NCBI GenBank assembly: GCA_020445565.1
Contig: JAGRGI010000157.1
Coordinates: forward strand, 1-24,017
Reading direction: 5' to 3'
Length of the DNA stretch: 24,017 nt
Source of the DNA: Chromatiales bacterium
Lineage (GTDB): Bacteria; Pseudomonadota; Gammaproteobacteria; JAGRCI01
In this document: piece after piece, positions 4,976 to 23,678 of the stretch
Layout: each line of letters starts with the position of its first letter
Numbering within the stretch: the first letter of the stretch is position 1
Position numbers and translations under genes: made by a program
Notes under the pieces: model-generated
Told to the model about the DNA's origin: nothing
The model's input: only the letters and a program-made list of their open reading frames with translations
Database searches by the model: none

Positions 4976-5288
4976 CTCTGGAAAAGGTCTGCAAAACCTC
5001 GGGGTTCGACTCCCCACCTAAACGGCTGGCGACCGTCAAAGCGCCTGGACATGCCCCGGCCGGGGACACCTCACGAGGGAAGAGCCGGCAGCATCGATTC
5101 CGCTTCGTACCGGAACCGCCCCAAACCCGAGCCGACTGGCGAGGGTGATCGTTGTGACAATAGCAGGATGCACGCCGACGACAGGATGTCGGCTCACACG
5201 ACTCCCGAACCGGGTCCGCCGGGCTTGTGCCCTACGGTCCGCGGATCGGTGCGGGGCATGTACACCCCAACAAGAAAGGAGAAGACAG

Positions 5289-6416
5289 ATGTTCGCCTAC
5301 AAGAAGTTTGTAATTGCCGAACACGAGCGTGGACTGCTGTTCAAGGACAGGCGTCTGAGCGCTGTGTTGCTGCCCGGCATCTATCGCCGTTTTGACCCCT
5401 GGGACCGGATCGCGGTGCTGGTGCACGATCTCAGCGAGCCCGAATTCGAACACCCGTTGGCGGAATTGTTTTTGAACACCGCGGCCGAAACCGTCGCCGA
5501 ACACCTGCATCTGATCAGCGTCGGCGAGCAGGAAGTGGTGCTTGTGTACAAGAGCGATACCTTGTCCGAGGTGCTGCCGCCGCAATCTCGCCGGGTGTAC
5601 TGGAAGGGGCCGGTACGGGTCAGTCAGGTGACGGTGGATATCCGCGAGGACTACGAACTCGATCGCAAACTGGCGGCTACGCTGATGCAGTCCCCCACGG
5701 TATCCAGAAACTCGGTCTACCGGGCCGAGGTGCCGGACCGGCATGTGGGCCTGTTGATCGTGGACGGTGAGCTGGTTCGTTCCCTGGCACCGGGTCCACA
5801 TGCCTTTTGGACCTTCAACCGCACCATTCGCGTGGAGATTTTGGATACCCGTGTGCAGGTCATGGAGATCGGCGGGCAGGAGATCCTCAGCCGTGACAAG
5901 GTCAGCCTGCGGGTGAACCTGGCGGCGCAGTATCGGGTCAGCGATCCGGTGAGGGCGCGGGCGGAGTTGAACAACCCGCTGGAGTGGCTCTACCGCGAAT
6001 TGCAGTTCGCCCTGCGGCAAGCGGTGGGGGCGCGCACCCTGGACAACCTGTTGGGCAACAAGGACGGGTTGGACCGGGCCATTTTCGAGGCGGTCGCAGA
6101 ACGCGCCGCCGAGAACGGCTTCGTGGTCAGCAGCGTGGGTCTGAAGGACGTGATCCTGCCCGGTGACATGAAGGAGATCCTCAACCAGGTGGTGCAGGCG
6201 GAGAAGGTCGCCCAGGCCAACGTGATCAAGCGTCGTGAGGAGACCGCGGCGACCCGCTCGCTGTTGAACACCGCCCGGCTCATGGACGAGAACCCGACCC
6301 TGCTGCGACTCAAGGAATTGGAGATGCTGGAGAAGGTGACGGAGAAGGTGGATCGCCTGACCGTGTTCGGTGGGCTGGACGGCGTGCTCAAGGACACGGT
6401 GCGCATCAACGTGTAG
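5289..6416 (+). CDS. SPFH/band-7 (stomatin/slipin-like) domain protein with a ~150-aa N-terminal extension of unknown function
   Basis: ATG at 5289 with AGGAG 7 nt upstream (the longer ORF from 5145 lacks an RBS). The C-terminal two-thirds carry SPFH hallmarks (LRQAVGARTLDNLL..., QVVQAEKVAQANVIKRREETAATRSLLNTARLM...NPTLLRLKELEMLEKV). No obvious TM helix. Confidence 0.8.
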   Translation: MFAYKKFVIAEHERGLLFKDRRLSAVLLPGIYRRFDPWDRIAVLVHDLSEPEFEHPLAELFLNTAAETVAEHLHLISVGEQEVVLVYKSDTLSEVLPPQSRRVYWKGPVRVSQVTVDIREDYELDRKLAATLMQSPTVSRNSVYRAEVPDRHVGLLIVDGELVRSLAPGPHAFWTFNRTIRVEILDTRVQVMEIGGQEILSRDKVSLRVNLAAQYRVSDPVRARAELNNPLEWLYRELQFALRQAVGARTLDNLLGNKDGLDRAIFEAVAERAAENGFVVSSVGLKDVILPGDMKEILNQVVQAEKVAQANVIKRREETAATRSLLNTARLMDENPTLLRLKELEMLEKVTEKVDRLTVFGGLDGVLKDTVRINV

Positions 6417-7770: not shown

Positions 7771-7941
7771 ATGAATAGCAAAAAAGTCAGCGGGATTCGC
7801 AACCCCGTCGCCAGATCGCCCTTGCTACGCAAAGGTGGAACCCACGAACGCAGCCGCTCCGGCGAACGCCAATCCGAGCAACGCCGACTGGAGCGGGAGC
7901 TGGCACGGTGGCATCCCGACAAGCGCGACCCGCAAACGTAA
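7771..7941 (+). CDS. small basic hypothetical protein (56 aa)
   Basis: ATG at 7771 with AGGAA 7 nt upstream (the 7753 start lacks an RBS). Highly basic, low complexity (MNSKKVSGIRNPVARSPLLRKGGTHERSRSGERQSEQRRLERELARWHPDKRDPQT). Coding status uncertain. Confidence 0.35.
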   Translation: MNSKKVSGIRNPVARSPLLRKGGTHERSRSGERQSEQRRLERELARWHPDKRDPQT

Positions 7942-7978
7942 ACGTCTATGCTTCTACGAAGGCATCCTGGAGGCTCCC

Positions 7979-8977
7979 ATGACTGCGCCGATCATCGTTC
8001 TAGCCCTCGTCATTCTCGCTGCATTGGCCTATCTGACCTCGTTAAAGGGGGGTTATGAAGTCCGCCGCAGCCTGGTCATGGACATACCGGCCGATCGGGC
8101 CTACGACGAGGTGCGCGACTATCGCAACTGGCCACACTGGAGCCCCTGGCTGATTCACGAACCGGACGCGAAACTGACCTTCAGCGACGAGCCTGACAAA
8201 GCGGCCGGATGGTATGAATGGAATGGAAAGTACGTCGGCGCCGGCAAAATCACCCATGAACAACTGGACGCAGCAAAACGCATCGTCGACCGGATCGAAT
8301 TCGTCCGGCCGTTCAAATCCGTCTCCACGGTAGGATTCGAGTTTCGCGAAACCGCTGGCGGCACCGAGGTCACCTGGACCATGGCCGGCACCATGCCCTT
8401 CTTCCTACGCTTTATGGTCCCGATGATGACGGGCATGATCGCCAGGGATTATGACCTCGGCCTGGCCCTGCTGCGCGGTCGACTTGATCCGAGCGCCGAG
8501 CGCCCCATCATCCGCTTCAACGGCTTTGCCGAACGCAACGCCGAGACCGTGCTTACCCGCTCGTTCAAAGGCAATCTGGAAGCAGTTAAGCAGGTCATGA
8601 ACAGCGGCTTTCCACAACTCGTCGAGCATGTCGCCCAAACTGGCGGACAACCCCTTGGCGCTCCGTTCACCGCCTATTACAAATCCAACCCGCGCACGTT
8701 GTATTTTGAGGGTGACATGGCCATACCCGTGGGTACGGACACACCCGACGGCGAATTCACGCGCAAGACCTTGGGCGACGGAAAATATTACCGGGTGCAC
8801 CTGCAAGGCAGCTATGAATTTCTCGGCCTTGCCTGGAACGCCGCCTTCAGCCATTTACGCATGTACAAGATCAAAGTAGATCGTTCCCGACCCACATTGG
8901 AGGTATATGAGAACGATCCGCGCAGCGTCGATAACAGCAACGAGATCAAGACCTCCCTGTACATCCCAATACGCTAG
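7979..8977 (+). CDS. membrane-anchored SRPBCC-family / GyrI-like (AraC-type effector-binding) two-domain protein
   Basis: ATG at 7979 with GGAGG 5 nt upstream and an N-terminal TM helix IIVLALVILAALAYL. N-terminal half is SRPBCC-like (RNWPHWSPW). C-terminal half has GyrI-like fold hallmarks (FTAYYKSNP...YYRVHLQGSYEFLGLAWNAAFSHL...LEVYENDPRSV). The upstream extension of ORF 7835 has no support. Confidence 0.7.
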   Translation: MTAPIIVLALVILAALAYLTSLKGGYEVRRSLVMDIPADRAYDEVRDYRNWPHWSPWLIHEPDAKLTFSDEPDKAAGWYEWNGKYVGAGKITHEQLDAAKRIVDRIEFVRPFKSVSTVGFEFRETAGGTEVTWTMAGTMPFFLRFMVPMMTGMIARDYDLGLALLRGRLDPSAERPIIRFNGFAERNAETVLTRSFKGNLEAVKQVMNSGFPQLVEHVAQTGGQPLGAPFTAYYKSNPRTLYFEGDMAIPVGTDTPDGEFTRKTLGDGKYYRVHLQGSYEFLGLAWNAAFSHLRMYKIKVDRSRPTLEVYENDPRSVDNSNEIKTSLYIPIR

Positions 8978-11976: not shown

Positions 11977-12273
11977 ATGACGACCCGAAAGAAGTACTCG
12001 AAAGAATTCAAGCTGGACGCTGTGAGCCTGGTCCTGGACCAGGGCTATACGCGCAGAGAGCCGGCCAAGAGCCTGGACGTCAATGAGCAGATGCTCGGTC
12101 GTTGGGTGAAAGAGCACCGGAACAGCGAGGATGGCCAGGCGTTCCGAGGCAATGGCAAGTTGACCCCGGAACAAGAGGAAATCAAAAGGCTGAAGGCGCA
12201 GAACAAGCGCCTTCAGATGGAGAGGGACATCCTAAAAAAAGCGACGGCATTCTTTGCAGCAGAAACGAAGTGA
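11977..12273 (+). CDS. IS3-family transposase OrfA (HTH/leucine-zipper part)
   Basis: MTTRKKYSKEFKLDAVSLV...LKAQNKRLQMERDILKKATAFFA, typical IS3 OrfA ending at the slippery A7G (12234-12241). Confidence 0.85.
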   Translation: MTTRKKYSKEFKLDAVSLVLDQGYTRREPAKSLDVNEQMLGRWVKEHRNSEDGQAFRGNGKLTPEQEEIKRLKAQNKRLQMERDILKKATAFFAAETK

Positions 12274-13147
12274 AATACGCGTTCATCACCCAACACAAGA
12301 ATGCCTACCCGATCAGCCTGCAGTGCCAGGTTTTGGGTGTCAGCCGAAACGGCTATTACCAGCACCGGAAGAACCACGAGGGCAAACCGGAAAACCCGAA
12401 TCACCAGGAGATGATCGAGTGGGTCCAGGATATCGCGAAGAGTTCGGGCGACACCTATGGGAGTCGCCGCATGAAGAAGGCGCTGAATGTGCTGGGCTAC
12501 CCAGTGAGTCGCGGAAAAGCCCGGAAACTGATGCGAGAAGCAAAGGTGCAGGTGCGCCACCGCAAGAAATACAAGGTGACGACGAACAGCAATCACAAGC
12601 AACCGGTTTTGAAAACCTGGTCAAGCGTGATTTCGACATCGACCGGCCGGACCAAGTGTATGCTGCCGATATCACCTACGTCTGGACCCAGGAGGGCTGG
12701 CTCTATCTGGCCGTGGTGATCGACCTGTGCACCCGCAAGGTGGTGGGCTGGAGTATGAGTTCCAGGATGAAGACGCAGCTGGTCTGTGATGCCTTACAGA
12801 TGGCGATCTGGCGTCGCCAGCCCAAGGCGGGACTGATCCACCATTCGGATCGCGGCTCACAGTACGCGAGCAAGGCATTCCGGCGGCTACTGAAGGCTCA
12901 CGGCATTGAGGGCAGTATGAGCCGCAAGGGCGACTGCTGGGACAATGCTGTCGTGGAGAGTTTCTTCGGCACGCTGAAGCAGGAGCGCGTGCAGTGGCGG
13001 AACTACCAGTCCCGCTACGAGGCCCAGCAGGACATCCTGGATTACATCTCGATGTTCTACAACAGTCGCCGCCTGCATTCACACCTGGGCTACATGAGTC
13101 CTAACGACTTTGAACGGCAACTGACAGAGACGAAAAAAGCGGCTTAA
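12234..13147 (+). pseudogene. IS3-family transposase OrfB (DDE integrase core) requiring the programmed -1 frameshift plus one additional frame break
   Basis: After a -1 slip at A7G, the frame-0 reading gives KKSDGILCSRNEVKYAFITQHKNAYPISLQCQVLGVSRNGYY...TTNSNHKQPV (IS3 OrfB N-terminus). The conserved continuation ENLVKRDF...ADITYV...DLCTRKVVGW...HHSDRGSQYAS...DNAVVESFF is in the +2 frame from ~12611. This implies a 1-nt deletion (or a homopolymer sequencing error) in the T-run GTTTTG at ~12606-12611. The ORF-track entries 12102..12719 and 12254..13147 are the two pieces. Confidence 0.6.
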
Positions 13148-13881: not shown

Positions 13882-15288
13882 ATGCTAACTTTGACTAAAT
13901 TTTCAGTTGAAACACCGATGAAGATCCCCCAAACACCACCTTCCTGGCAGCTGCTTTTATTGGAAACAGAGAACCTCCAACCGATCCTGGAGCTAGATCC
14001 GTTGGTGGGGGGGTGCTATCTGCACTGGGACGAGTTACGGCACCGCACTCCCCCGGAAGGTTTGTCGCATGAGGCATGGTGGACGGGGGTACGATTCGCC
14101 AGAGAGGGTATGTTGCGATCGCTTCCATTCCAGGACAAGCATGGTAAACCCATCCGGTTTGGTGTGCCGGATCCCGTGCTACGCAGTCTGCACGCCATTG
14201 ATCAGCGGGCGGCGGGCAATGTAGAAATGGCATCGCCTATTGTCTCAGGTGACGACCGGAACCGCTATCTGGTGAGCTCTCTTATTGAGGAAGCAATAAC
14301 GTCCAGTCAGCTGGAAGGCGCTGCGACGACGCGCGAACAGGCCAAAGCGATGCTGCGTAGCGGTCGCCAACCTCGCGACCGGTCGGAGCGAATGATTCTG
14401 AACAACTATCACGCCATGGAGGCGATTAGGGACATCCGCGACCGGCAATTGACACCGCAACTGGTCTACGAATTGCATCGAATTGTTACTGAAGGGACAC
14501 TGGACGATCCCAGCGCAGCAGGGCGGTTGCGAAAACCAGACGAGCGGGTCAATGTCGTAACTTCGGACCACGCGACCATACTCCATCAACCACCAGACGC
14601 AACGTCGCTTCCACAGCGAATGGATGACCTTTGTCGCTTTGCCAACGCGGATGCTGCTGCCGAAGAGGCGTTCGTACATCCCGTCATTCGCGCCATCCTG
14701 CTGCATTACATGCTGGGCTACGATCACCCCTTCGTGGACGGTAACGGGCGAACTGCTCGCGCGTTGGTTTACTGGAGCCTAGCGCGCTCCCGCTATTGGC
14801 TGATGGAGTATGTTTCTATTTCGAGACTCCTGAAATTGGCACCTGCGAAGTACGCACGCGCATACCTGCATACCGAGACAGATGGCAATGACACAACCTA
14901 TTTCATCATTCATCAACTGGACGTCATTGAACACGCTATCAGCGCGCTGCATGAATACTTGGACCGGAAGATAGCAGAAGAACGAAATGCAGAAGCCCTG
15001 TTGCGGCATACGCCACATTTGTCAGACCAACTAAACCATCGTCAGGTAGCTCTGCTGACGCACGCATTGAGGCATGCCCAACATGGCTATACAGTGGAAA
15101 GCCACAAGCGTTCACACCGGGTCACCCACCAAACTGCGCGAACCGATCTGCAACAACTAATGGATCTGGGCTTACTGGACAAGGGGAAGCGCGGGCGTGC
15201 TTTTGTCTTCTATGCGCCGGATGACTTGAGAATGCGTATTGAGCAAGCAGCTAGTTCAACAGCAAGTCGGCATATTCATGCTCCCTAG
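13882..15288 (+). CDS. Fic-family protein (AMPylation-type Fic core with N-terminal inhibitory helix and C-terminal winged-HTH)
   Basis: Canonical Fic motif HPFVDGNGRTAR. Upstream SSQLEG fits the autoinhibitory (S/T)xxxE(G/N) motif. ~470 aa with a C-terminal DNA-binding-like tail. Alternative start ATG 13918 (MKIPQ...). Local GC is clearly lower than in the surrounding genes. Confidence 0.85.
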   Translation: MLTLTKFSVETPMKIPQTPPSWQLLLLETENLQPILELDPLVGGCYLHWDELRHRTPPEGLSHEAWWTGVRFAREGMLRSLPFQDKHGKPIRFGVPDPVLRSLHAIDQRAAGNVEMASPIVSGDDRNRYLVSSLIEEAITSSQLEGAATTREQAKAMLRSGRQPRDRSERMILNNYHAMEAIRDIRDRQLTPQLVYELHRIVTEGTLDDPSAAGRLRKPDERVNVVTSDHATILHQPPDATSLPQRMDDLCRFANADAAAEEAFVHPVIRAILLHYMLGYDHPFVDGNGRTARALVYWSLARSRYWLMEYVSISRLLKLAPAKYARAYLHTETDGNDTTYFIIHQLDVIEHAISALHEYLDRKIAEERNAEALLRHTPHLSDQLNHRQVALLTHALRHAQHGYTVESHKRSHRVTHQTARTDLQQLMDLGLLDKGKRGRAFVFYAPDDLRMRIEQAASSTASRHIHAP

Positions 15289-15392
15289 AGTATACGAATG
15301 CAGCGAATTAGTGATCGCCCGATTTGCGCATTCGTAAACGCCCCTCCTCAGCTGCAACACACACGCCGAGTGAGATTGAACCCGCCTCATAC

Positions 15393-15418
15393 AAGCCCGC
15401 CGCTGTGCGGACTTTTTC
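15393..15418 (+). terminator. rho-independent terminator, near-identical copy of the hairpin at 23414
   Basis: AAGCCCGC-CGCTGT-GCGGACTTTTTCGTG versus AAGCCCGC-CGCTGT-GCGGGCTTTTTCGTG at 23414-23441. Confidence 0.55.
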
Positions 15419-15533
15419 GTGCCGGCAGGGGGCCGGGCCGGATTCAGAAAATTTGCTTACACAGGCGCTTACATTGCGCCAGAACCGGCCGCATTCACGC
15501 CGGCCGAAATCCATGTAATTTATTGTTTTTATT

Positions 15534-15582
15534 TGGTAGGCCCGGCAGGACTTGAACCTGCGACCAAGGGATTATGAGTCCC
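15534..15582 (-). repeat. 49-nt direct repeat of the 3' part of tRNA-Ile2 (att core duplicate, distal junction of the island)
   Basis: TGGTAGGCCCGGCAGGACTtGAACCTGCGACCAAGGGATTATGAGTCCC matches 23602-23650 with one mismatch. It covers the CCA end through the anticodon stem, then the sequences diverge. Confidence 0.8.
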
Positions 15583-15630
15583 ACGCCCCCATAAACAAAA
15601 ACAGTGCTTTAGAATCCATTCTTCGTCTTG

Positions 15631-15649
15631 GGTACCAATTCAGGTACCA
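15631..15649 (+). promoter_or_regulatory. arm-type GGTACCA direct repeats next to the distal att junction (a third copy at 15753-15759 just upstream of the int start)
   Basis: GGGTACCAATTCAGGTACCATCG. The same heptamer is repeated five times at 23447-23531. Confidence 0.35.
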
Positions 15650-15763
15650 TCGCGCTATAGTTTCCACACGCGAAACGACGCTAACGCACGCGCCTTTTTA
15701 AAGGTGTCCCAAGGGGCTGCCACCCCAAGGGACATCGCCGACCACCCGCTGAGGTACCAGCCG

Positions 15764-16861
15764 ATGGCGACCATTACCAAGGTAACCCGCAAAACCGGGA
15801 CCGTCTACAAGGCCCGCGTTCGCCGCGAGGGCCAGCCCCAGGTATCCAAAACCTTCACCAACAAGTCGGACGCCCTGAAATGGGCGCGCGCGTTCGAAGT
15901 GGACTTGGAACGGGACCATGCCGGCCTGATCCCCGAGGGCCAGCGTCACACCCTGGCTGAAGCCGTCAAGAAGTACCGGGCGGAAGTCCTCCCCGAGCTG
16001 CGACCCGAGACCGCCAAGAAGTACTCCGCGCACCTGGACTACTGGGCCGCCGAACTGGGAGGCCCGGCCCTTTCGGAAATTGCGCCCCGCATGATCTCCA
16101 AGGCGCGGGACTCACTGACCCAGTCCGGGAAGTCTCCCGCCACGGTAAACCGATACCTGGCCACCCTGGCAAGCCTGCTGACGGCCGCCGTGAAGCGCTG
16201 GCACTGGCTCCCGGATTCTCCGATGCGGGGCGTTCGCAAGCTGACGGAAGCCAACGCGGGGACTCGGTTCCTGTCCGAGTCCGAGTTATCCCACCTGTTG
16301 GCCGCCTGCGGGGAGTCTTCCAACCCCGATCTATTGCCCGCCGTGCTGCTGTCGGTCACGACTGGAGCCCGCCGTGGGGAAATCATGGGACTCCGCTGGA
16401 AAGACCTCGATCTGAAGGCCGGTGTCGTTCGGCTGCGCGTGGACAACGAGACGTCGACCAAGGGCGGTATCCGTTCGCTACCCCTGGTCCCTCAAGTCCT
16501 GGAGATCCTGAAGGAACGCCACGAGGCTGCGAAGGAGGCCAAGGTTCGGCCGCTACGGGCAGAAGACGAACTGGTCTTCCCGTCCAAGGTTTCCCGGCAC
16601 CAACCGATTGATCTGCGGAAACCGTTCGAGTCTGCATTGCGCCGGGCGGGTATCGACCATTTTCGCTGGCATGACATGCGCCACAGCGCGGCGTCCTTCC
16701 TGGCCGCCCACGGAGCGAGCCTACTGGAGATCGGAGAGGTACTGGGGCACAAGAACGCGGCAACGACGAAACGCTATGCCCACCTGGTGCAGCAACGAAC
16801 CGATGATTTAGTGCGGGTGGTGGCCGCGAAGATTCTGGGCGAAAAAGGCGAAGACCGGTGA
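15764..16861 (+). CDS. int: tyrosine site-specific integrase (P4 / CP4-57 type)
   Basis: ATG at 15764. N-terminal SAM-like domain (KTGTVYKARVRREGQ...KTFTNKSDALKWARAFE). C-terminal catalytic R...HxxR...Y (GARRGEIMGLRWKDL; HDMRHSAASF; TKRYAH). The ORF-track start 15704 is an upstream extension. Confidence 0.9.
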   Translation: MATITKVTRKTGTVYKARVRREGQPQVSKTFTNKSDALKWARAFEVDLERDHAGLIPEGQRHTLAEAVKKYRAEVLPELRPETAKKYSAHLDYWAAELGGPALSEIAPRMISKARDSLTQSGKSPATVNRYLATLASLLTAAVKRWHWLPDSPMRGVRKLTEANAGTRFLSESELSHLLAACGESSNPDLLPAVLLSVTTGARRGEIMGLRWKDLDLKAGVVRLRVDNETSTKGGIRSLPLVPQVLEILKERHEAAKEAKVRPLRAEDELVFPSKVSRHQPIDLRKPFESALRRAGIDHFRWHDMRHSAASFLAAHGASLLEIGEVLGHKNAATTKRYAHLVQQRTDDLVRVVAAKILGEKGEDR

Positions 16862-17700
16862 CCAAAGACGAAGCAAGGGAACTTGCCGAGAAGTTTCTTC
16901 GGGAGATGTTGGCCTACAACGTGGAACACGAGATTTGGCCGGCCGAAAACGCTGTGATAAGGCGAATGCTTAATCGGCGTGAACCATATTGGCCAGAACT
17001 TCCAAAATACTACGCGGCCGTATATGGGCCGCTGCTTACAACCGAAGGAAATCGAGTCATGGAGGCAATGGTCTCCGCCGTCGTTGCCTTCTCGATCAGC
17101 AATACTACCCAGCTCAGAAACCAGTTGAAGATAGCCGCTGCGCTGTCGGAAGAGATCGCCCAACATGCAGCCGAAATTGCCCGGCTCATTAGGGAGCGGG
17201 TGGAAAATTGCCCTGACGTATCGCAGCCACCGGGATGTCACCCGTTAAACCTAATCGAGCTGGCTGCCGAATGCTCCGGCACTCGGTTCAGGTTCGAAAG
17301 CTGGGTAAGACCAGCACTACGGAAGGCCCGATCCTTCGATTCGAGGTACTGGCCGGACATACCTGAACTGTTGGAAGCGCTGGCGAAAATGGAGCTGGAT
17401 CACCGCCACGAATTGTTGTGCATGCCGTTGGCCGCCGCTGTATATGTGAACCGCGAGTCAGCGGCTGATGTTGTCCGCGTGGTGCTAGCCTGCTTGGACG
17501 AACTGATACTGGAAACCAGATACAGCGGTGGCGAGTTGTGCAGGGCGAACCCGGCCGCGCTCAAACTATCCAACGCGGCGATTGCTGCATTCCTGAATGG
17601 AACAATCTCGCCGGAACAGCCATTTACGGAAGAAAGCGTACGGAAGCGCCGCAAAGATTACGACACGAGGATTCGCGATTCCCTGTTCGGTATCGAATAG
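16858..17700 (+). CDS. hypothetical protein (280 aa), translationally coupled to int; candidate accessory cargo
   Basis: GTG start overlaps the int stop (GTGA). No recognisable motif. GC markedly lower (~50-55 percent by eye) than the host-like genes. Confidence 0.5.
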   Translation: MTKDEARELAEKFLREMLAYNVEHEIWPAENAVIRRMLNRREPYWPELPKYYAAVYGPLLTTEGNRVMEAMVSAVVAFSISNTTQLRNQLKIAAALSEEIAQHAAEIARLIRERVENCPDVSQPPGCHPLNLIELAAECSGTRFRFESWVRPALRKARSFDSRYWPDIPELLEALAKMELDHRHELLCMPLAAAVYVNRESAADVVRVVLACLDELILETRYSGGELCRANPAALKLSNAAIAAFLNGTISPEQPFTEESVRKRRKDYDTRIRDSLFGIE

Positions 17701-17706
17701 GCAGGC

Positions 17707-17759
17707 GGACACTCGCCGCCCCAAAATAAATTTTAGTGTCCGGGACGGGGCCGGACACT
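17707..17759 (+). promoter_or_regulatory. GGACACT / AGTGTCC / GGACACT repeat set flanking an AT-rich box upstream of the xis-primase-helicase operon
   Basis: GGACACT (17707-17713), inverted AGTGTCC (17735-17741), GGACACT (17753-17759), with AAAATAAATTTTA between. Looks like an operator/promoter. Confidence 0.3.
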
Positions 17760-17831
17760 CGCCCGCACCATGCGCCGTACCGACGCCAAAAGACGCGCGT
17801 CATTCATGTAACGACACTTTGAGGCGCAAAA

Positions 17832-18065
17832 ATGAATGCTTCCCCGCGCAAGTGGCGCTCCGTAGCCGCACTCGCCGAAGTCATTAACAACGGAGCTGAA
17901 CACAAAACCCTGACCGACCATGCAATTCGGCATCTGGTCCGCAAGGCGGATACGAACGGTCTTGATGAACACGTTCGCCGGCTTGGGCGGAAGGTCCTTA
18001 TCGATGAGAACGGATTTCGGAATTGGCTGGATCGGACCTTGGCCGGCAATAGTCGGCCCGCCTGA
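17832..18065 (+). CDS. AlpA/Xis-family excisionase-like small DNA-binding protein
   Basis: 77 aa. GAGG 7 nt upstream. MerR-like/excisionase HTH pattern (KTLTDHAIRHLVRKADTNGLDEHVRRLGRKVLIDENGFRNWL). Its stop overlaps the next start (TGATG). Confidence 0.65.
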   Translation: MNASPRKWRSVAALAEVINNGAEHKTLTDHAIRHLVRKADTNGLDEHVRRLGRKVLIDENGFRNWLDRTLAGNSRPA

Positions 18066-18739
18066 TGGATCCCGAAAATGATCACGCCCGCCCCGGTGAC
18101 CAGACCGGGAGCGGGAGCGGGCGCGGATATAGCGATACTGGATGTGCGACCGGCAATCGAGATCATACCGCGCGCAGCTCCGCCAAGCCAAGCCGTGGTG
18201 CCTTCCGGCACGATTGGCTTCGCGCTCCCGCAGACTATTACGAATCCGAAGGGCTACGGTTGGTCGGCGCGGGGCCTTGGCGCTCGGGGCTGTGCGTCTT
18301 CCACGACGAAACCACCGAATCCCTGCGCGTCAACATCGAACACGGCGGTTATCGCTGTATGGGCTGTGGTGAAACAGGGGGCGATATCCTGGCGTTTCAC
18401 ATGGCGCGCTACGGACTGACCTTCGTCGAAGCCGCGAAGGCTCTGGGGGCGTGGGACGAAGGAGCGGCCGCGCCGCCGCGCCAACCTCAGCCGTTCGGCA
18501 TGTCTCCCGCCGAGTTGGATGACGTGTTGTTCATCGAGCTGCATGTGCTCTTGCAGTGTGTCTCCCGTCGTCGATCTGATCGGCTCTCCCCGCGACTGGG
18601 GCCGATGCCGCCCGAGTGGCGCGCGGAACCGCCCGCTTCTGGCTATTGGCCGCGCGAATTGAAGGCCGCGACCCGCGTCGAGAAATTGTTGGGGGCAATC
18701 TACAGTGACGAACTCCGGGGGGTGTCGCCGTGTCGATGA
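18065..18739 (+). CDS. DNA primase CHC2-type zinc-finger domain protein (no recognisable TOPRIM catalytic domain)
   Basis: CVFHDETTESLRVNIEHGGYRCMGCGETGGDILAFHMARYGLTFVEAAKAL is the zf-CHC2 signature of DnaG/P4-alpha primases. Low-complexity Gly/Ser N-terminus. ATGA overlap with the helicase gene. Confidence 0.7.
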   Translation: MDPENDHARPGDQTGSGSGRGYSDTGCATGNRDHTARSSAKPSRGAFRHDWLRAPADYYESEGLRLVGAGPWRSGLCVFHDETTESLRVNIEHGGYRCMGCGETGGDILAFHMARYGLTFVEAAKALGAWDEGAAAPPRQPQPFGMSPAELDDVLFIELHVLLQCVSRRRSDRLSPRLGPMPPEWRAEPPASGYWPRELKAATRVEKLLGAIYSDELRGVSPCR

Positions 18740-19971
18740 GCCTGGACGAACAGCACCGCCGCTTGGATCGTGTGGCGGAAAAAACGGCGCGGCTGGATTC
18801 GGATGAAACACCCAGAGCCGAACGGGCAAACGCAGCTACTACCGGCCAAGTATCCACAGGTGCGCTGCTGGATGAGGATGACGGGCCGTCGCCCCCGGCT
18901 CTCGCAAGCGAATCATGGGCCACCCTCGCGGCGCGAGAGTTTGGGCCGGTCCGCTGGATCGTCGAGGACTACCTGCCGCCGGGTGTCACGCTACTCGTCG
19001 CGCCACCCAAGGCCGGGAAGTCCTGGATGGTGCTGTCCATCATCCTCTTGGTACTGGCGCGCCGGCCCGTGTGGGGACGGCGCACCTGCGGGGGCGAGGC
19101 CCTGTACTTGGCGCTGGAGGATTCGGCGCGGCGACTCCAGGCCCGGACACGGACACTCCAGCGTATCCACGGTCTGGTGGATGACGACATCCGAGGGTTC
19201 CGACACGCGCTCGATGCGCCCCGTATGGACCGGGGTCTGGATGCGGTGCTGGTGGACCACATGGACCGCTACCCGGATACCCGCCTGGTCGTCATCGATG
19301 TGCTGGCGCGGGTCCGCCGACCGCGCAACCCCAGCGAGGGCATGTACGACTGGGACTACATGACCACCGGCGCATTCCGGGAGCTGGCCGCGCAGTACCC
19401 CGCCCTGGCCATCATCCTGGTGCACCACGCGAACAAGTCGGGGGACGATGGACTGACCGCCGTCAGCGGCACCCACGGGCTGGCAGCCGGCGCCGATAAC
19501 GTGCTCACGATCATGCGGACAGCCAACGGCCCCGAACTGCACATCCACGGGCGGGACATCGCGGACAGCGAGCCGATCCCGCTGCCCCGGGATGAGGCTG
19601 GTATGTGGACGCTGGAGTCCCGCGATAGCGCCACGGCCGCGCAGATGAGCGACACGCGGGCGTTGATTCTCGATGCGATACGGGCCGGCGCCGAAACCCC
19701 GAAGGAGATCGCGGCAGAGGCGGACCTGGCACAGACGACCGTGGACGCACAACTGCGCCGCCTGCGCAAACAGGGTGAGGTCATTCAGCCGGCGCGGGGA
19801 AGCTACGCGCTACCGCCGGATACTGATCCATACGCCCCCCGTACCTACCCCCCCCATATGGATAGTATGGAGAGTATGGGAGGTGACCATATCGCCCCGC
19901 CCGTCCATACGGTCCATACCGTCCATACGGGGGGAGGGGTAGAGGATGGTATGGACGGGGAGGCTTTCTGA
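18736..19971 (+). CDS. RepA/DnaB-like P-loop ATPase (AAA_25-type replicative helicase module) with C-terminal winged-HTH and a repeat-encoded tail
   Basis: Walker A APPKAGKS, Walker B LVVIDVLARV, LVHHANKSG. C-terminal wHTH (ILDAIRAGAETPKEIAAEADLAQTTVDAQLRRLRKQGEV). The tail ...MDSMESMGGD...VHTVHTVHTGG is dictated by DNA iterons. Start taken at ATG 18736 (ATGA coupling). Confidence 0.75.
   Translation: MSLDEQHRRLDRVAEKTARLDSDETPRAERANAATTGQVSTGALLDEDDGPSPPALASESWATLAAREFGPVRWIVEDYLPPGVTLLVAPPKAGKSWMVLSIILLVLARRPVWGRRTCGGEALYLALEDSARRLQARTRTLQRIHGLVDDDIRGFRHALDAPRMDRGLDAVLVDHMDRYPDTRLVVIDVLARVRRPRNPSEGMYDWDYMTTGAFRELAAQYPALAIILVHHANKSGDDGLTAVSGTHGLAAGADNVLTIMRTANGPELHIHGRDIADSEPIPLPRDEAGMWTLESRDSATAAQMSDTRALILDAIRAGAETPKEIAAEADLAQTTVDAQLRRLRKQGEVIQPARGSYALPPDTDPYAPRTYPPHMDSMESMGGDHIAPPVHTVHTVHTGGGVEDGMDGEAF
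19828..19928 (+). repeat. inverted arrays of 9-bp-period iterons inside the helicase 3' end; candidate replication origin
   Basis: TCCATACG (19828), then ATATGGATA / GTATGGAGA / GTATGGGAG (19856-19880), a degenerate CCATATCG, then GTCCATACG / GTCCATACC / GTCCATACG (19903-19929). That is three direct repeats facing three inverted copies of the same 7-mer. Confidence 0.6.
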
Positions 19972-19973
19972 TC

Positions 19974-20303
19974 ATGGATCCCCTCGAAGAGCTGACCGCA
20001 GCCGGCCTGACGCTGACCGCCAAGGGTACGTGCCTGATCGCCACTCCCCGTGCCCGGATTACCGACCGCTGTCGCGAACTGATTCACCGGCACAAACCCG
20101 AGTTGCTGGCCCTCCTGTCTCCGGGCCCGTTACCCGTTCGCGAGGGGCGGTCAATCGGTCGCTGGCTCGCCCACATCGGCGAGAACGACCCACAGACCCG
20201 CGCCGACGTGCTGGCGCAGTGCGAACGGGATATCTCTGCGAGGACTTACTTCCTGGCGCGGGCTGCCGAGGTGCGGCCTGCGGGGGAATGTCGTGGCCGT
20301 TGA
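19974..20303 (+). CDS. hypothetical protein (109 aa)
   Basis: ATG 3 nt after the helicase stop. No motif recognised. Confidence 0.45.
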   Translation: MDPLEELTAAGLTLTAKGTCLIATPRARITDRCRELIHRHKPELLALLSPGPLPVREGRSIGRWLAHIGENDPQTRADVLAQCERDISARTYFLARAAEVRPAGECRGR

Positions 20304-20382
20304 GTTTTGTCGCGGCCTATCGAATTTGGGCGACCGGCTTTGGGTCCTTCCCCCGAAAAAGCCGGCACACGAGCGCGTAGAT

Positions 20383-20404
20383 CGCGGATTTTCCGCCTTT
20401 TTTT
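20383..20404 (+). terminator. probable rho-independent terminator
   Basis: GCGGA-TTT-TCCGC followed by CTTTTTTTGG. Confidence 0.4.
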
Positions 20405-20436
20405 GGCCCTATGTGGGGGTGTCCATGTCTGTTGGT

Positions 20437-20550
20437 GGGTTTTATGCCCTGTAACTGCTGGTTTTCACTTGGTTTTTTAACCCATAGATGGGCGCGCCGA
20501 AATAGCCATGGTTTGCGGCGGCTGGCCTATCCGAGATTGGAGGTTTTTTT
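20437..20550 (+). repeat. cluster of TGGTTTT direct repeats in the intergenic/promoter region
   Basis: TGGGTTTTA (20437), CTGGTTTTCAC (20458), TTGGTTTTTTA (20469), ATGGTTTGCGG (20508), GGAGGTTTTTTT (20539, which includes the RBS). Confidence 0.3.
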
Positions 20551-21039
20551 ATGTTCGAGTGCCTGAACAAGCCGGCCACGCAACGCGAGTTCGGCGACCT
20601 GATCGGCATCGCAAAACAGAACGTCTCCAAGGCATTCCTGGCGGGCGCCCTGCCGCCCGGCGGGACCCTGCGGGACTGGTTGCTGGCCTATTGCGACCGG
20701 TTACGGGGTGTCGCCGACGTGCGGGGCGGCGACGACCAGCGGGCGTTGACTCGCGCCCGGACGGAACTGGCTCTGACCGACGCCGAGGGAAAACGGCGCG
20801 CCCTGCTCCGCGAGGCCGACCGCCTGGCGGAGGTGGAATGGGTGCGGGAGGCCCTGGACGGCTGGGAGTCCGTCGGGCTGGCCTCCCTCGCAAAAGCTGA
20901 AGAGCGGATGGCTGCCGAACTGGCATCGCGAGGTGTCGAGGATGTCGGGTTCATCCGTGAGGCCCTGCGGGCGGTCACCGAAGAACTGGCAACACGCCCG
21001 GCGCCCCTCCAACGCACGCGAGAGGAGCCCGCGCCATGA
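20551..21039 (+). CDS. N-terminal HTH protein with charged coiled-coil C-terminus; possibly phage small-terminase-like (Nu1-type) or a regulator
   Basis: GGAGG 7 nt upstream. N-terminus NKPATQREFGDLIGIAKQNVSKAFLAGALPPGG is an HTH. Ala/Arg/Glu-rich helical remainder. The terminase assignment is by architecture only. Confidence 0.5.
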   Translation: MFECLNKPATQREFGDLIGIAKQNVSKAFLAGALPPGGTLRDWLLAYCDRLRGVADVRGGDDQRALTRARTELALTDAEGKRRALLREADRLAEVEWVREALDGWESVGLASLAKAEERMAAELASRGVEDVGFIREALRAVTEELATRPAPLQRTREEPAP

Positions 21040-21380
21040 AGCCCAAACGCAAGGGGCGGTCGCTGCCGGTCTATCCCGTCCGCCTGCATACCCTGGCGGA
21101 ACTGTTCTGCCTGGACCTGGACCGGCTGCCGGACGGGTCCGTGGGCGTCCGCTTTCGGCGGGGGGTTTCTGCTCAGACGCGCAACCGCGTGGTGAGGCAG
21201 TTATTCCCGCCGGCCGCTGGGGCACCCCCGACAAGCTGCCCGCTGCCCCATACCCCCAGGCTACGGACCATAGCGGGTAGGATCGCCCGAAAAAATCTGA
21301 CTCCATTGGAGCGCGCCCGCCAGATCATCGACGAGATGGCGGAATGTCCCGGCGCGTGTGATCGCCGAGACACCCTGTAA
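21036..21380 (+). CDS. hypothetical protein (114 aa), ATGA-coupled to the upstream gene
   Basis: Start overlaps the previous stop. Basic N-terminus. No motif recognised. Confidence 0.45.
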   Translation: MKPKRKGRSLPVYPVRLHTLAELFCLDLDRLPDGSVGVRFRRGVSAQTRNRVVRQLFPPAAGAPPTSCPLPHTPRLRTIAGRIARKNLTPLERARQIIDEMAECPGACDRRDTL

Positions 21381-21407
21381 CCCCAACACTACCGAGAGGT
21401 ACCGGAA

Positions 21408-21974
21408 ATGACGAAAGAACTCGACCAAGCCACCGCCGATGTGATGGCTATCGCCGTGAAACTGAAGGCCGCTCGTGATCGCCGCAGGGCAATGACCGAG
21501 CGGCGTGAAACGGCTGCCGCCAAGTTGGTTACTGCCGTTGCTGACAAGGACCAAGCCGTAGTCCGCTACGCCACTGGGGAAATTGACGAAACCGAACTGG
21601 AGGGCGCAACGAAGTCCGTCCGCCTGCTGGAGGCTGAAATTGAGGGCTTGGACGCGACCTTGACCGCGATTGAGGGCGTGATTGAAGGGTTGGAATCCGA
21701 TTGCAAAGAACCCGAGGAGCTGGCCCTGCGTAGTTTCTGGGCTGCATGGGAGGAGGAGGCCAAGAAGGCCGAAGCGCGGCTTCTGAACGCGATGATGGAA
21801 CCGGCTCTGCACGCATGGGCTGCGTACAAGACCCGGCACCACAGAAGCTACGGCGGAACCCTCTCGTTTGCCGAGTACATCGAAAACCTGTGTCGCAAGG
21901 CCAACATCCGCGAGCCCAAGTTGGGCAAGGTCCAATTGCCGACGGTGGCCCCGACGGCATCCAATGTGATCTAA
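21408..21974 (+). CDS. hypothetical acidic coiled-coil protein (188 aa)
   Basis: GAGAGG RBS 8 nt upstream of ATG. Glu/Ala-rich heptad-like sequence. No motif recognised. Confidence 0.5.
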   Translation: MTKELDQATADVMAIAVKLKAARDRRRAMTERRETAAAKLVTAVADKDQAVVRYATGEIDETELEGATKSVRLLEAEIEGLDATLTAIEGVIEGLESDCKEPEELALRSFWAAWEEEAKKAEARLLNAMMEPALHAWAAYKTRHHRSYGGTLSFAEYIENLCRKANIREPKLGKVQLPTVAPTASNVI

Positions 21975-21988
21975 CGGCGCTTGGCGCC

Positions 21989-22075
21989 AACGTTTAAGGC
22001 GAGCCGCGCGGGGGCTCCCGTCCCTCAACACCTCCGGGGGCGGGAGGCAGCCACCAGCCGTGCGGCTCGCCGCCT
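21989..22075 (+). repeat. structured hairpin repeat unit 1 (candidate ncRNA or protein-binding hairpin)
   Basis: AACGTTTAAGGCGAG CCGCGCGG ... loop CAACACCTCC ... CCACCAGCCGTGCGGCTCGCCGCCT. 14-bp outer stem GGCGAGCCGCGCGG / CCGTGCGGCTCGCC (one G-U pair) plus an inner stem. Confidence 0.5.
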
Positions 22076-22107
22076 ATCCCACGTGATGTGCAATTCTGCG
22101 CATCGCA

Positions 22108-22193
22108 AACGTTTAGGCGAGTTGCGCGGGGTCACTACCCGCAGTAACACCTCCCGGAGTGGTGACCGCCACCAGCCGCGCAACTCGCCGCCT
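22108..22193 (+). repeat. structured hairpin repeat unit 2 (diverged copy with compensatory stem changes)
   Basis: AACGTTTAGGCGAG TTGCGCGG ... inner stem GGTCAC/GTGACC ... loop TAACACCTCC ... CCACCAGCCGCGCAACTCGCCGCCT. The CC to TT change in the 5' arm is matched by GG to AA in the 3' arm. Confidence 0.5.
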
Positions 22194-22222
22194 CTTCCAT
22201 GCCGGTTTCCAGGGTTTACCCC

Positions 22223-22249
22223 TGCGATCGTTGCGATTCTTGCGATCAT
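22223..22249 (+). repeat. three tandem 9-bp iterons (TGCGATCGT / TGCGATTCT / TGCGATCAT) overlapping a -35 box
   Basis: Read directly from the sequence. Confidence 0.5.
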
Positions 22250-22268
22250 TGGGGACCTGGCGTACTCT
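22240..22268 (+). promoter_or_regulatory. putative sigma70 promoter (TTGCGA - 17 nt - TACTCT)
   Basis: -35 at 22240-22245 lies inside the third iteron. -10 at 22263-22268. Confidence 0.4.
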
Positions 22269-22274
22269 CAAGCT

Positions 22275-22349
22275 GTCCCCGACGCATCGGGGCCGGGATT
22301 ACCACCCCGGTTCAGACCAGAAGGCCGAAACCGCTTTGGCGGTTTTTTC
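22275..22349 (+). ncRNA. candidate ~75-nt sRNA or attenuator (promoter, two hairpins, intrinsic terminator)
   Basis: Hairpins CCCCGACGCATCGGGG and CCGGGATTACCACCCCGG, then the terminator AACCGC-TTTG-GCGGTTTTTT. Followed by a further structured leader (GGCCGTCTTCGGACGGGCC with a UUCG tetraloop, and a repeated GATTACCACC motif) before the next CDS. Confidence 0.3.
22327..22349 (+). terminator. rho-independent terminator
   Basis: AACCGC-TTTG-GCGGTT followed by TTTTTT. Confidence 0.55.
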
Positions 22350-22502
22350 GTGCTCGCCGTTTATTTGGCGGGACGTGTGGGGCCGTCTTCGGACGGGCCG
22401 GCATCCTTCTGGGCCGGTTGTGGTAACCCCGCACGGACCGCCACCCTTCCCGATTACCACCGGGCGTGGCGGTTACACTTCAACCAGAAGGAGACCGACA
22501 AC

Positions 22503-22961
22503 ATGACCCAGCAGTCATACCGTATCACCGGCCGCGAACCCCTGGCCTACAGACTGACCAAGGACCGCCACGGCAACCCGCTGGCCACGATTGAAAACTT
22601 CCCCGGTTTGCACGCGGACCTGACGCCAGACCAATTGCGGGACTTTGCGCTGGCACTGACCGCAATCAGCTACGAAAGCCAGCACCCGGAAACGCACCTG
22701 GGTTCCGTGCCGCTCACGCGGGATGTGCTGATCGAAGCCACCAACTATGCTGACATTGGGCAATCCGTTTTCTCGCTGCTGGGTGCGTTGTTTACCGCGA
22801 TCCGTGCGGACCTTCCAGACTACTCGCAGGGCAACAAGTTGGCAGCCATCGGGGAAGATAGGTGCGAAGCGTATTGCGCTGTTTTCGAAGGGCAATCGGA
22901 GACACTAACCGCCGCACTGAAAGCCGCGTCAAAGCCGCAACGGGAGGGCGAAGCGCGGTGA
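22503..22961 (+). CDS. hypothetical protein (152 aa)
   Basis: ATG at 22503 with AAGGAG 9 nt upstream. The upstream part of ORF 21981..22961 is the structured non-coding region. A perfect hairpin GATACCG-agatcc-CGGTATC overlaps the stop. Confidence 0.55.
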   Translation: MTQQSYRITGREPLAYRLTKDRHGNPLATIENFPGLHADLTPDQLRDFALALTAISYESQHPETHLGSVPLTRDVLIEATNYADIGQSVFSLLGALFTAIRADLPDYSQGNKLAAIGEDRCEAYCAVFEGQSETLTAALKAASKPQREGEAR

Positions 22962-23157
22962 TACCGAGATCCCGGTATCACACGCATCCCTCGCGCGGGG
23001 GGCGGGGCCAAAGCCTTGACGGGCTTGGCCCCAAAGCAGGAATTCCCGCTTTGGGGCCAAGGGCCAGTGGCCGGTACTCGCCTCAAACTTGGTGAGTGAA
23101 TTCACGGTTGACCACGAAAAGCCAAACACGGCATCAACAATCGGGAGATACCGAACT

Positions 23158-23358
23158 ATGGCCTTGGGCTGGATCTTCATAGCGCTTTACGTCGCCACCG
23201 CGATTTCCCTGTGGTGGCTCGCTCACCCGTTGGTGACGGTTGTAATGCTGGCCCTACTGGTTCGCTTCATCTACCGCGTGGTCACCGGCAAGGCGGACAT
23301 GCGCACGGGCGGGGGGACTTGGCTGAACGCCTGGACCTATCGGTCGCCCGAAAGGTAG
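23158..23358 (+). CDS. small two-TM membrane protein (66 aa)
   Basis: ATG at 23158 with GGGAGA 10 nt upstream. Two hydrophobic helices (LGWIFIALYVATAISLWWLA; LVTVVMLALLVRFIY). Preceded by inverted repeats GGCCCCAAAGC...GCTTTGGGGCC (23029-23060). Confidence 0.5.
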   Translation: MALGWIFIALYVATAISLWWLAHPLVTVVMLALLVRFIYRVVTGKADMRTGGGTWLNAWTYRSPER

Positions 23359-23377
23359 TTGCCGCCAGACGAAATTA

Positions 23378-23400
23378 AAAACCGGTAGATCTTCGGTTTT
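23378..23400. terminator. bidirectional intrinsic terminator hairpin (AAAACCG...CGGTTTT)
   Basis: AAAAACCG-GTAGATCTT-CGGTTTT. Confidence 0.55.
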
Positions 23401-23413
23401 GAATCCAACCAAC

Positions 23414-23438
23414 AAGCCCGCCGCTGTGCGGGCTTTTT
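23414..23438 (+). terminator. rho-independent terminator (hairpin family member shared with 15393, 13356 and 13688)
   Basis: AAGCCCGC-CGCTGT-GCGGGCTTTTT. Confidence 0.55.
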
Positions 23439-23446
23439 CGTGGTCG

Positions 23447-23538
23447 GGTACCAGTAGGTACCACTTCAGGAAACGCGACTACCAAGCCTGCGCCGGTAGC
23501 CGGGTACCAGCGGGTACCAATTTGGGTACCACTTGAGG
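23447..23538 (+). promoter_or_regulatory. five GGTACCA arm-type direct repeats between the island genes and the tRNA att site (putative integrase/Xis arm-binding sites)
   Basis: GGTACCA at 23447, 23457, 23503, 23513 and 23525. Two occur as GGTACCACTT(C/G)AGG. Confidence 0.4.
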
Positions 23539-23601
23539 GCGCGTTTCAGGCGAAATGCGGCTAATCCATGCGCCTTGATGCGAGGCAAGTTGTTGATTAT
23601 A

Positions 23602-23678
<77 letters not shown>

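Follow-up and report, generated by a model that had tools for sequence, protein, structure and literature searches.

C4, the antisense RNA of phages P1 and P7 (RF01695, clan CL00128), is a plus-strand small RNA (sRNA) encoded in a non-coding stretch of a mobile-element immunity region. It is released by RNase P, which cuts before the GG of the closing stem P1, and carries a single-stranded junction of 7-9 nt (a') on the 3' side and none on the 5' side, as well as a loop (b') that covers a ribosome-binding site (RBS) (PMC5320573; PMC2864571 supplement). An inner hairpin, P2, ends in a tetraloop (PMC2864571 supplement), and the specificities of the phage P1 and phage P7 RNAs differ by a few bases in a' and b' (PMC5320573). 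Group 1 C4-derived sRNAs of Acinetobacter baumannii, of which a genome holds several, are processed from longer transcripts at GG, and their variable loops were proposed to retarget the scaffold (PMC5320573). Tandem structured units in mobile DNA are also known from the STAXI family (RF01728), which is occasionally found near c4 RNAs and for which it is debated whether it acts as RNA or as single-stranded DNA (PMC2864571). Here we analyze two tandem hairpin units, termed unit 1 and unit 2, in a tRNA-Met-integrated island of a Chromatiales metagenome-assembled genome (MAG), the window being the entire 24-kb contig JAGRGI010000157.1 (24,017 nt).

The units lie at the 3' end of an operon with a terminase-small-subunit-like first gene (terS-orf114-orf188), and a canonical C4 gene follows ~170 nt downstream on the same strand. 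Because C4 adjacency, strand, flanks, asymmetry, loop chemistry and a natural sequence variant point the same way in combination, we see about an even chance that both units are plus-strand RNA genes of the C4 antisense-RNA kind, in a reduced form that falls outside the Rfam family as defined. The initial annotation of this DNA, made from the sequence without database searches, had proposed an RNA-based immunity function among other roles for the units, and this function is the best reading of our data as well; its location of the units on a satellite-type island is borne out by the tRNA-Met att sites and a gene set resembling that of phage-inducible chromosomal islands (PICIs).

Architecture, folding and conservation of the units

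Both units share one architecture (Table 1), on which sequence and fold agree, as the initial annotation had stated. An AU-rich single-stranded leader stands 5' of the outer stem P1, the inner stem P2 comprises 11-12 bp and carries a loop of 10-13 nt ending in AACACCUCC, and GCCACCAG is left unpaired on the 3' side only. A small palindrome does precede each unit, and the identity between the units, put at ~60% at first, is ~66% (57 invariant out of 87 columns), with leader, loop motif, bulge and tail being 100% identical. Within the window, the leader together with the stem start, AACGTTTA(A)GGCGAG, occurs at 21989 and 22108 only (0 expected from shuffles), the loop motif AACACCTCC at 22027 and 22146 only (~0 copies expected), and exact copies of the bulge motif GCCACCAGCCG at 22050 and 22168 only (~0 expected). 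The loop sequence CACCUCC equals the core of the 16S anti-Shine-Dalgarno sequence, the window itself being without a 16S gene. This anti-Shine-Dalgarno likeness of the loops stands, whereas the general titration of GGAGG sites that had been suggested along with it is less likely than recognition by loop and bulge in the style of C4.

The plus-strand RNA folds reach -54.5 kcal/mol for unit 1 (z -4.05) and -47.8 kcal/mol for unit 2 (z -5.76), with 0 out of 200 shuffles as stable in either case, and the check by separate and joint folding that had been recommended gave the same picture, each unit folding alone as well as on its own within a 501-nt precursor. On the minus strand the RNA folds are weaker (z -1.86 for unit 1, z -3.72 for unit 2), because several plus-strand G-U pairs turn into A-C mismatches there. 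In the alignment of the two units 94% of the cells are paired, compared with 34-54% when the partners are slid against each other. Five base pairs are changed on both sides between the units, including the CC>UU/GG>AA exchange in P1 that had already been recognized as compensatory, and two more are changed to wobble pairs by a one-sided substitution; the shuffle control for this covariation is weak with two sequences only, since 48 out of 500 shuffles reach the observed value. Overall, the pattern of conserved structure together with conserved single strands is real, and the stable folds and compensatory pairs agree with the earlier view of selection on a folded nucleic acid rather than on coding. 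The long ORF at 21981-22961, which runs across the units and the C4 gene, was treated as spurious. RNA and hairpin DNA had both been considered for the folded form; the fold energies favor the plus strand and we prefer the RNA reading, in which the units are likely structured plus-strand RNAs.

In one metagenome contig (L071:985-1428; ENA ERZ28655881 scaffold_53539) the match to the island ends at window position 22192 after ..CTCGCCGCC, the penultimate base of unit 2. Past this point lies unrelated DNA with the truncated N-terminus of a P-loop NTPase (GEPGSGKSSF) on the opposite strand. The junction may be a recombination junction or module boundary, or it may come from a chimeric assembly.

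The strand asymmetry also bears on a function at the DNA level, i.e., a pac site for the TerS-like protein or a cis-acting replication element for the primase or helicase, acting either in duplex form, as repeats, or as hairpins that are extruded or single-stranded. Genes for a primase, a helicase and a terS-like protein are present on the island, the units are located just downstream of the terS operon, and their period of 119 bp is close to the repeat length of crr in satellite P4, which has two direct repeats of ~120 bp. With DNA energy parameters the plus strand still folds significantly, and contig L071 breaks at the 3' end of unit 2, which would suit such a site. However, these parameters reproduce the advantage of the plus over the minus strand, and a cruciform requires both strands, whereas the minus strand of unit 1 is no better than shuffles (z -1.5 to -1.9) due to the G-T/A-C asymmetry. 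Duplex protein-binding repeats, in turn, offer no explanation for an intramolecular complementarity that spans 25 bp and is preserved by compensatory changes, no short iterons were found, and the AT-rich region 20380-20550 is a more conventional candidate for an origin of replication. We consider a DNA site quite improbable.

Several other assignments were tried and rejected. An integron attC site has paired cores (RYYYAAC ... GTTRRRY) at the hairpin base and an adjoining integron integrase; here the stem base is GGCGAG/CUCGCC, AACGTT is present on the 5' side only, and the integrase of the island uses the tRNA-Met att site. Intrinsic terminators, defined as a GC-rich hairpin directly followed by a U-tract, were dismissed since neither unit has a T-run after it and the terminator scan yields the hairpin 22324-22349 only. 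A sigma-54 promoter reading was rejected from sequence. The STAXI model has no match to the units at E<=10, and by eye the flanks offer no pseudoknot partner for loop or bulge; unlike the units, STAXI elements are pseudoknots with UUCG loops, usually in three repeats, in Enterobacteria.

Relation to C4 RNA and search for further copies

To relate the units to C4 we used covariance models in both directions. Model R1 was built from the two units alone and searched against the window plus 99 phage loci fetched by a C4 pattern (~1 Mb in total). The units came out on top (unit 1 self-match 102.8 bits), weak reverse-strand self-matches of the units were also obtained, and nearly all other matches (15-23 bits) were the C4 genes of the phage loci, aligned over their full length and on the correct strand; among the R1 matches listed, 14 out of 15 with comparable C4 coordinates coincide with C4, and four others were outside this comparison. 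Model R2 was derived from 78 distinct phage C4 RNAs and run over the window with filters off. It placed the canonical C4 gene first (78 bits), followed by unit 2 (17.3 bits, E 0.011) and unit 1 (15.7 bits, E 0.028) in second and third place, while the next match in the window scored 10.9 bits and the maximum in 96 kb of GC-rich bacterial control DNA was 13.7 bits. Common to the R1 and R2 alignments are the AU-rich leader, P1 with GGCG...CGCC, an interior of 46 nt compared with 48 model positions, and a CC-containing tail.

The units thus resemble C4 in these reciprocal, weak model matches as well as in their position on the plus strand of a non-coding stretch in an immunity region and in their build. 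Like C4, they are of about the same overall length and have an AU-rich leader (..GUUUA(A)), a long closing stem starting with GG(C) (14 bp, GGCGAG../..CUCGCC), an NCC tail (GCCU) and an anti-Shine-Dalgarno-type loop. Their 3'-only single strand, without a 5' junction, measures 8 nt in unit 2 and 11 nt in unit 1 compared with 7-9 nt in C4, and the loops of 10-13 nt compare with ~12 nt for b' and offer an 8-bp complement (10 bp for unit 2) to the Shine-Dalgarno region of the helicase gene, on a stem longer than that of C4. In contrast to C4, with its 5-bp inner hairpin, the inner stem of the units has 11-12 bp, and flanking a1b1/a2b2 target sites are missing, as no complement of loop or bulge is present in 22194-22560. 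The units look like divergent paralogues of canonical C4, in which the two inner hairpins (the P2 tetraloop hairpin and P3) are replaced by a single long one. The A. baumannii sRNAs, on the other hand, retain all three helices of the C4 fold, are recognized by the Rfam model, and are dispersed rather than tandem in a satellite (PMC5320573).

Some IMG/VR phage contigs carry two full C4 genes on the same strand, 0.66-0.87 kb apart (L108:4670-4769 and 5329-5428; L144:7020-7119 and 7889-7988), giving a precedent for local duplication of C4.

Further copies of the units were searched for with sequence patterns. No other copy exists in the 24-kb contig. IMG/VR gave 64 matches to a loop-plus-bulge pattern, all of them by chance and without a hairpin, and 0 matches each to the leader-plus-P1, the leader-plus-loop-plus-bulge and the P1-only patterns, and the 22 matches to a bulge-plus-P1 pattern in 185,579 GTDB species-representative genomes were all chance matches in GC-rich DNA. 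The P1 pattern returned at least 120 matches from JGI metagenomes, none of which has the bulge, loop, leader or tail of the units. About half of these belong to a family of symmetric palindromes and the remainder are due to chance. This family is abundant, mostly in soil-type samples, and consists of near-perfect palindromes of 68-84 nt, GGCGAGCGGCGCGGCGT(A/C)AGCCCGCCGG..variable loop..CCGGCGGGCT(G/T)ACGCCGCGCCGCTCGCC, or in shorter form GGCGAGCGGCGCGGCGTMAGCCCGCCGG..loop..CCGGCGGGCTKACGCCGCGCCGCTCGCC, with varying loops and flanks and no Rfam match; examples among the contigs L223-L340 are L243:764-833, L334:732-800 and L306, the latter with 3-4 copies in 12.9 kb.

Such palindromes raise the question of whether the units are host repeats of the REP (repetitive extragenic palindromic), REPIN or MITE (miniature inverted-repeat transposable element) type, or members of this soil-metagenome GGCGAG..GCGCGG stem family, which landed at their site by chance or through repeat-mediated rearrangement. 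The large palindrome family has the same outer-stem sequence, unit 2 contains, in our reading, the GTCA and CCCGC segments of the soil family consensus, and the divergence of L071 at the end of unit 2 is of the kind seen at repeat-induced assembly or recombination junctions. Nevertheless, a genome-wide REP family, named in the initial annotation as a possible refutation and tested in part here, has left no further copies in the contig, the species-representative genomes, IMG/VR or the sampled JGI matches. Moreover, symmetry and variation in loops and flanks characterize the soil elements, whereas the units are asymmetric and most conserved in loop, bulge and flanks, the reverse of REP elements. 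We consider this origin very improbable.

Proposed mechanism, candidate targets and natural variant

We infer the transcription, processing, target identity and biological role of the units as follows. From orf188 to the units, neither the scans nor sequence reading revealed a terminator or a clear promoter. The units are therefore probably co-transcribed with terS-orf114-orf188, and would form the 3' end of that operon transcript. RNase P would release each unit from the precursor by cutting where the AU-rich leader meets the initial G of the GGCGAG stem, aided by the 3' GCC tail as for the precursors of C4 and 4.5S RNA, and the small hairpins at 21976-21988 and 22085-22104 would cap the 3' ends of the upstream fragments. 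The freed RNAs of ~75-80 nt would expose two elements, the b'-like, anti-Shine-Dalgarno loop (..AACACCUCC) and the a'-like 3' bulge of 8 nt (GCCACCAG), which would pair with a bipartite mRNA site, cover the RBS and block translation. Putative targets are the helicase RBS (18689-18725), the site 20415-20438 upstream of the terS operon, or a gene of the helper phage. Loop and bulge would set the specificity, re-tuned by paired point mutations, and the units together with C4 would make up the RNA immunity region of a PICI-like satellite. In satellite P4, immunity is exerted by the CI RNA, in which seqB pairs with seqA and seqC, and which acts by transcription termination. As proposed for the units, an sRNA processed from a longer transcript silences replication genes there; the fold differs, and the likeness to P4 drawn in the initial annotation is limited to this functional analogy.

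When G-U pairs are allowed, the plus strand of the contig (24 kb) contains just two perfect 8-bp complements of ACACCUCC, and both lie within the island. The first is placed on the Shine-Dalgarno G-run of the helicase gene (GTG start at 18730), with an a-like site 21 nt upstream. The second is found just 3' of a terminator-like hairpin (20385-20405, by eye) and has an a-like site 9 nt downstream; it precedes the very terS-like operon at whose 3' end the units are located. In 1000 dinucleotide shuffles of the island, at least two b sites occurred in 2.7% and an a-then-b composite in 1.0%. Ranking by summed duplex energy discriminates poorly in GC-rich DNA, the positive control (C4 against orf152) being narrowly best. 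Sites with one mismatch at 16815 and 16902 were rejected as chance matches. Judging from the sequence, the helicase RBS is a reasonable hypothesis for a target of the units, and a helper-phage target is equally possible.

A natural variant speaks to the proposed recognition code. Contigs L074 and L078, from two independent assemblies (ERZ28655870 and ERZ27309391), carry a haplotype that differs over 1.2-1.8 kb by just two C>G substitutions, both in unit 2, of which C22150G alters the loop motif and C22170G the bulge. According to our arithmetic, the probability that under uniform mutation two random changes hit the loop and the bulge, respectively, of a single unit is p ~3e-4. The paired single-nucleotide polymorphisms (SNPs) match the prediction of a two-element recognition code and, by analogy, parallel the a'/b' differences between phages P1 and P7. 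Both contigs are too short to reach the candidate target sites.

The position behind orf188 also fits hairpins that are passive 3'-end structures of the terS-orf188 operon, i.e., tandem terminators or insulators without a U-tract, or barriers to 3' exonucleases. Such hairpins would have no role in trans; they would stabilize the mRNA upstream of them and keep read-through out of the C4 module. In line with this, the hairpins begin 2 nt past the orf188 stop codon, their stems are very stable and GC-rich, no other terminator occurs before 22324, and in contig L071 the units separate orf188 from DNA that is read in the opposite direction. Yet the U-tract of a terminator is absent behind both hairpins, and for such a role the stem alone suffices, leaving the conserved 9-nt loop motif, the asymmetric 8-nt bulge, the AU-rich leader and the tail unexplained, and likewise the paired SNPs in loop and bulge. 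A purely passive function is hence unlikely in our view.

The C4-type reading has to be weighed against a number of findings as well. In the search of the 221-nt region 21980-22200, the units had no match to Rfam C4, c4-2 or c4-a1b1 at E<=10, a whole-Rfam search at permissive thresholds produced noise only, and the gathering threshold of RF01695 (45 bits) is not reached by the units, compared with 70.5 bits for the neighboring C4. The earlier statement that no described family matches is nonetheless incomplete, since the reciprocal covariance models link the units to the C4 kind. Having a single inner hairpin, the units lack the P2 tetraloop hairpin that defines C4; immediately 5' of the putative RNase P site they have A, compared with U in 78 out of 78 phage C4 sequences; and their tail is GCCU and not ACCC/ACCA. 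The similarity to C4 is limited to P1 and its flanks, and homology beyond P1 is not demonstrable. Furthermore, the C4 model scores some of the soil palindromes, which are apparently unrelated and share the stem sequence, at 12-32 bits, and hence similarity in P1 is no proof of descent from C4. As no homologue was found beyond one island lineage, the covariation is confined to two paralogues. The promoter scan found no sigma-70-like promoter, and the window contains neither an exact complement of loop or bulge nor an exact bipartite target. Finally, the statistics on targets were computed post hoc, the a-like sites match imperfectly, and the site order at 20415 is reversed compared with C4 targets.

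Going one step further, the units and C4 might constitute a three-RNA immunity locus, in which two RNAs of an undescribed minimal two-helix C4-derived class, cut from the 3' end of the packaging operon, would repress the helicase and the packaging operon of the satellite itself or their helper-phage equivalents through a loop-plus-bulge code that is retargeted by paired point mutations. We regard this fuller scheme as tentative and would sooner doubt than accept it.

C4 module, host island and implications

Table 1 Coordinates of the hairpin units, the C4 module, the candidate targets and the host island in the window.
Feature	Position	Strand	Basis or remark
Small hairpin 1 (GGCGC-UUG-GCGCC)	21976..21988	+	directly 3' of orf188 stop codon (21972-21974); sequence reading, fold in context
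Unit 1, C4-like RNA	21989..22075	+	fold, alignment, covariance models
Unit 1 leader AACGUUUAA	21989-21997	+	fold
Unit 1 outer stem P1, 14 bp	21998-22011/22058-22071	+	fold
Unit 1 inner stem P2	22015-22025/22036-22046	+	fold
Unit 1 loop (b'-like) CAACACCUCC	22026-22035	+	fold
Unit 1 3' internal loop (a'-like) GCAGCCACCAG, 11 nt	22047-22057	+	fold
Unit 1 tail GCCU	22072-22075	+	sequence
Small hairpin 2 (GAUGUGCA-AUUC-UGCGCAUC), spacer between units	22085..22104	+	sequence reading, fold in context
Unit 2, C4-like RNA	22108..22193	+	fold, variant contigs, alignment, covariance models
Unit 2 leader AACGUUUA	22108-22115	+	fold
Unit 2 outer stem P1, 14 bp	22116-22129/22176-22189	+	fold
Unit 2 inner stem P2	22130-22141/22155-22167	+	fold
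Unit 2 loop (b'-like), ends AACACCUCC	22142-22154	+	fold
Unit 2 3' internal loop (a'-like) GCCACCAG, 8 nt	22168-22175	+	fold
Unit 2 tail GCCU	22190-22193	+	sequence
IsrK-like / c4-a1b1-like element	22262..22349	+	isrK 40 bits and c4-a1b1 18.9 bits, neither reaching the gathering score
Canonical C4 antisense RNA gene	22361..22448	+	Rfam RF01695, 70.5 bits, gathering 45, E 3.9e-12
C4 a2/b2 target region, over RBS CCAGAAGGAG (22484-22493) and orf152 start codon	22453..22505	+	duplexes
orf152, C4-controlled gene, orphan	22503..22961	+	no Pfam or PHROG match
Candidate target 1, helicase RBS	18689..18732	+	a-like UUGGGGGC 18689-18696, one mismatch; b-like GGGGGUGU 18718-18725
Candidate target 2, upstream of terS operon	20415..20439	+	b-like GGGGGUGU 20415-20422; a-like UUGGUGG 20432-20438
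Host island, 8.07 kb, tRNA-Met-integrated	15583..23650	+	attL 15529-15582, attR 23597-23650

The region downstream of orf188 had been described as 520 bp free of protein-coding genes. It measures 529 nt and holds the canonical C4 gene and an IsrK-like/c4-a1b1-like element, both of which had been overlooked. This element, part of the same immunity module and here situated between unit 2 and C4, carries the C4 sites a1 (UUACCAC, ~22300) and b1 (CCAGAAGG, ~22318) and ends at its 3' side in the intrinsic-terminator-like hairpin 22324-22349 of the terminator scan; its sites are purine-rich and of the target type for C4, whereas those of the units are pyrimidine-rich and of the antisense type. Canonical C4 is predicted to form duplexes of -18.7 and -16.2 kcal/mol with a1 and b1, and of -20.5 (b') and -16.8 kcal/mol (a') with the a2/b2 region. 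A sigma-70 promoter at 22240-22268 (TTGCGA-17-TACTCT), guessed by eye, fails the promoter scan. The sole blastn match to phage records was a weak C4 similarity to Escherichia phage P88, and protein searches with orf188 and orf152 found no relatives outside their own clusters, the closest relatives of the helicase being at most 42% identical.

The island ends are 54-nt direct repeats of the 3' part of tRNA-Met that are 96% identical, and the gene order in between is int, orf280, primase, helicase+HTH, terS-like orf162, orf114, orf188, units, C4 module, orf152 and orf66. An integrase, a CHC2 primase, an AAA_25 helicase with an HTH domain and orf162 (20551-21039), which matches the terminase small subunit family (phrog_57, E 1.3e-6), are encoded, and by this gene set the island looks like a PICI-type phage satellite. 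It recurs near-identically in more than a dozen metagenome contigs, and every island-bearing contig is near-identical.

Further observations concern the island and the contig as a whole. GGTACCA-containing repeats close to both island ends (15630-15649, 23440-23466 and 23496-23531) resemble arm-type sites of integrases, and the Logan contig L065 covers 15553-23650 with identical ends of 30 nt, which fits a unitig bounded by repeats as well as a circular form. A segment of 33 nt that contains a terminator (ACAAGCCCGCCGCTGTGCGG.CTTTTTCGTG) is common to the DNA left of attL (15380-15528) and left of attR (23400-23596), which suggests that a remnant of another, related island, integrated in tandem, ends left of attL; this putative second-island stretch holds an IS3-type transposase (12254-13147) and a Fic protein (13882-15288). 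In contig L344:1-427 (ENA ERZ27309377 k141_7532) the island match begins at window position 20198, within orf109, with a different gene of 168 aa upstream, which hints at modular exchange among related islands. The AT-rich intergenic region 20380-20550 is T-skewed, follows the terminator-like hairpin 20385-20405 and has three TGGTTTT-like repeats; it could be the satellite origin of replication or the promoter region of the terS operon. A loop-less palindrome of 19+19 nt (23024-23061, 95% complementary) is found between orf152 and the next small ORF. Single-base homopolymer deletions at 18717, 19090, 20350 and 20840 in the Logan contigs L065 and L350 shift the gene calls of primase and helicase and probably represent artifacts of sequencing or assembly, not phase variation. 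Because L350 has several such 1-nt deletions, the difference in G-run length at 18717 was also put down to homopolymer noise, probably rightly, and not taken as real variation. Elsewhere in the contig, the 5' part of a class A bacterial RNase P RNA lies on the minus strand at 1-121, clipped by the contig end, and a second tRNA-Met gene is present on the plus strand at 4903-4976.

The practical reach of these findings is limited, as the element is known from one island lineage. If our reading of the units is true, however, the C4 scaffold could lose a helix and still work, curated models would miss such relatives, and the C4 family may be under-counted. With each of its recognition elements changed once, the variant would then be a natural experiment on a shift in antisense specificity and, should the three-RNA locus be real, tandem copies would be a way to hold several specificities together. 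For the uncultured Chromatiales bacterium, it would mean an RNA-based immunity region in its PICI-like satellite.

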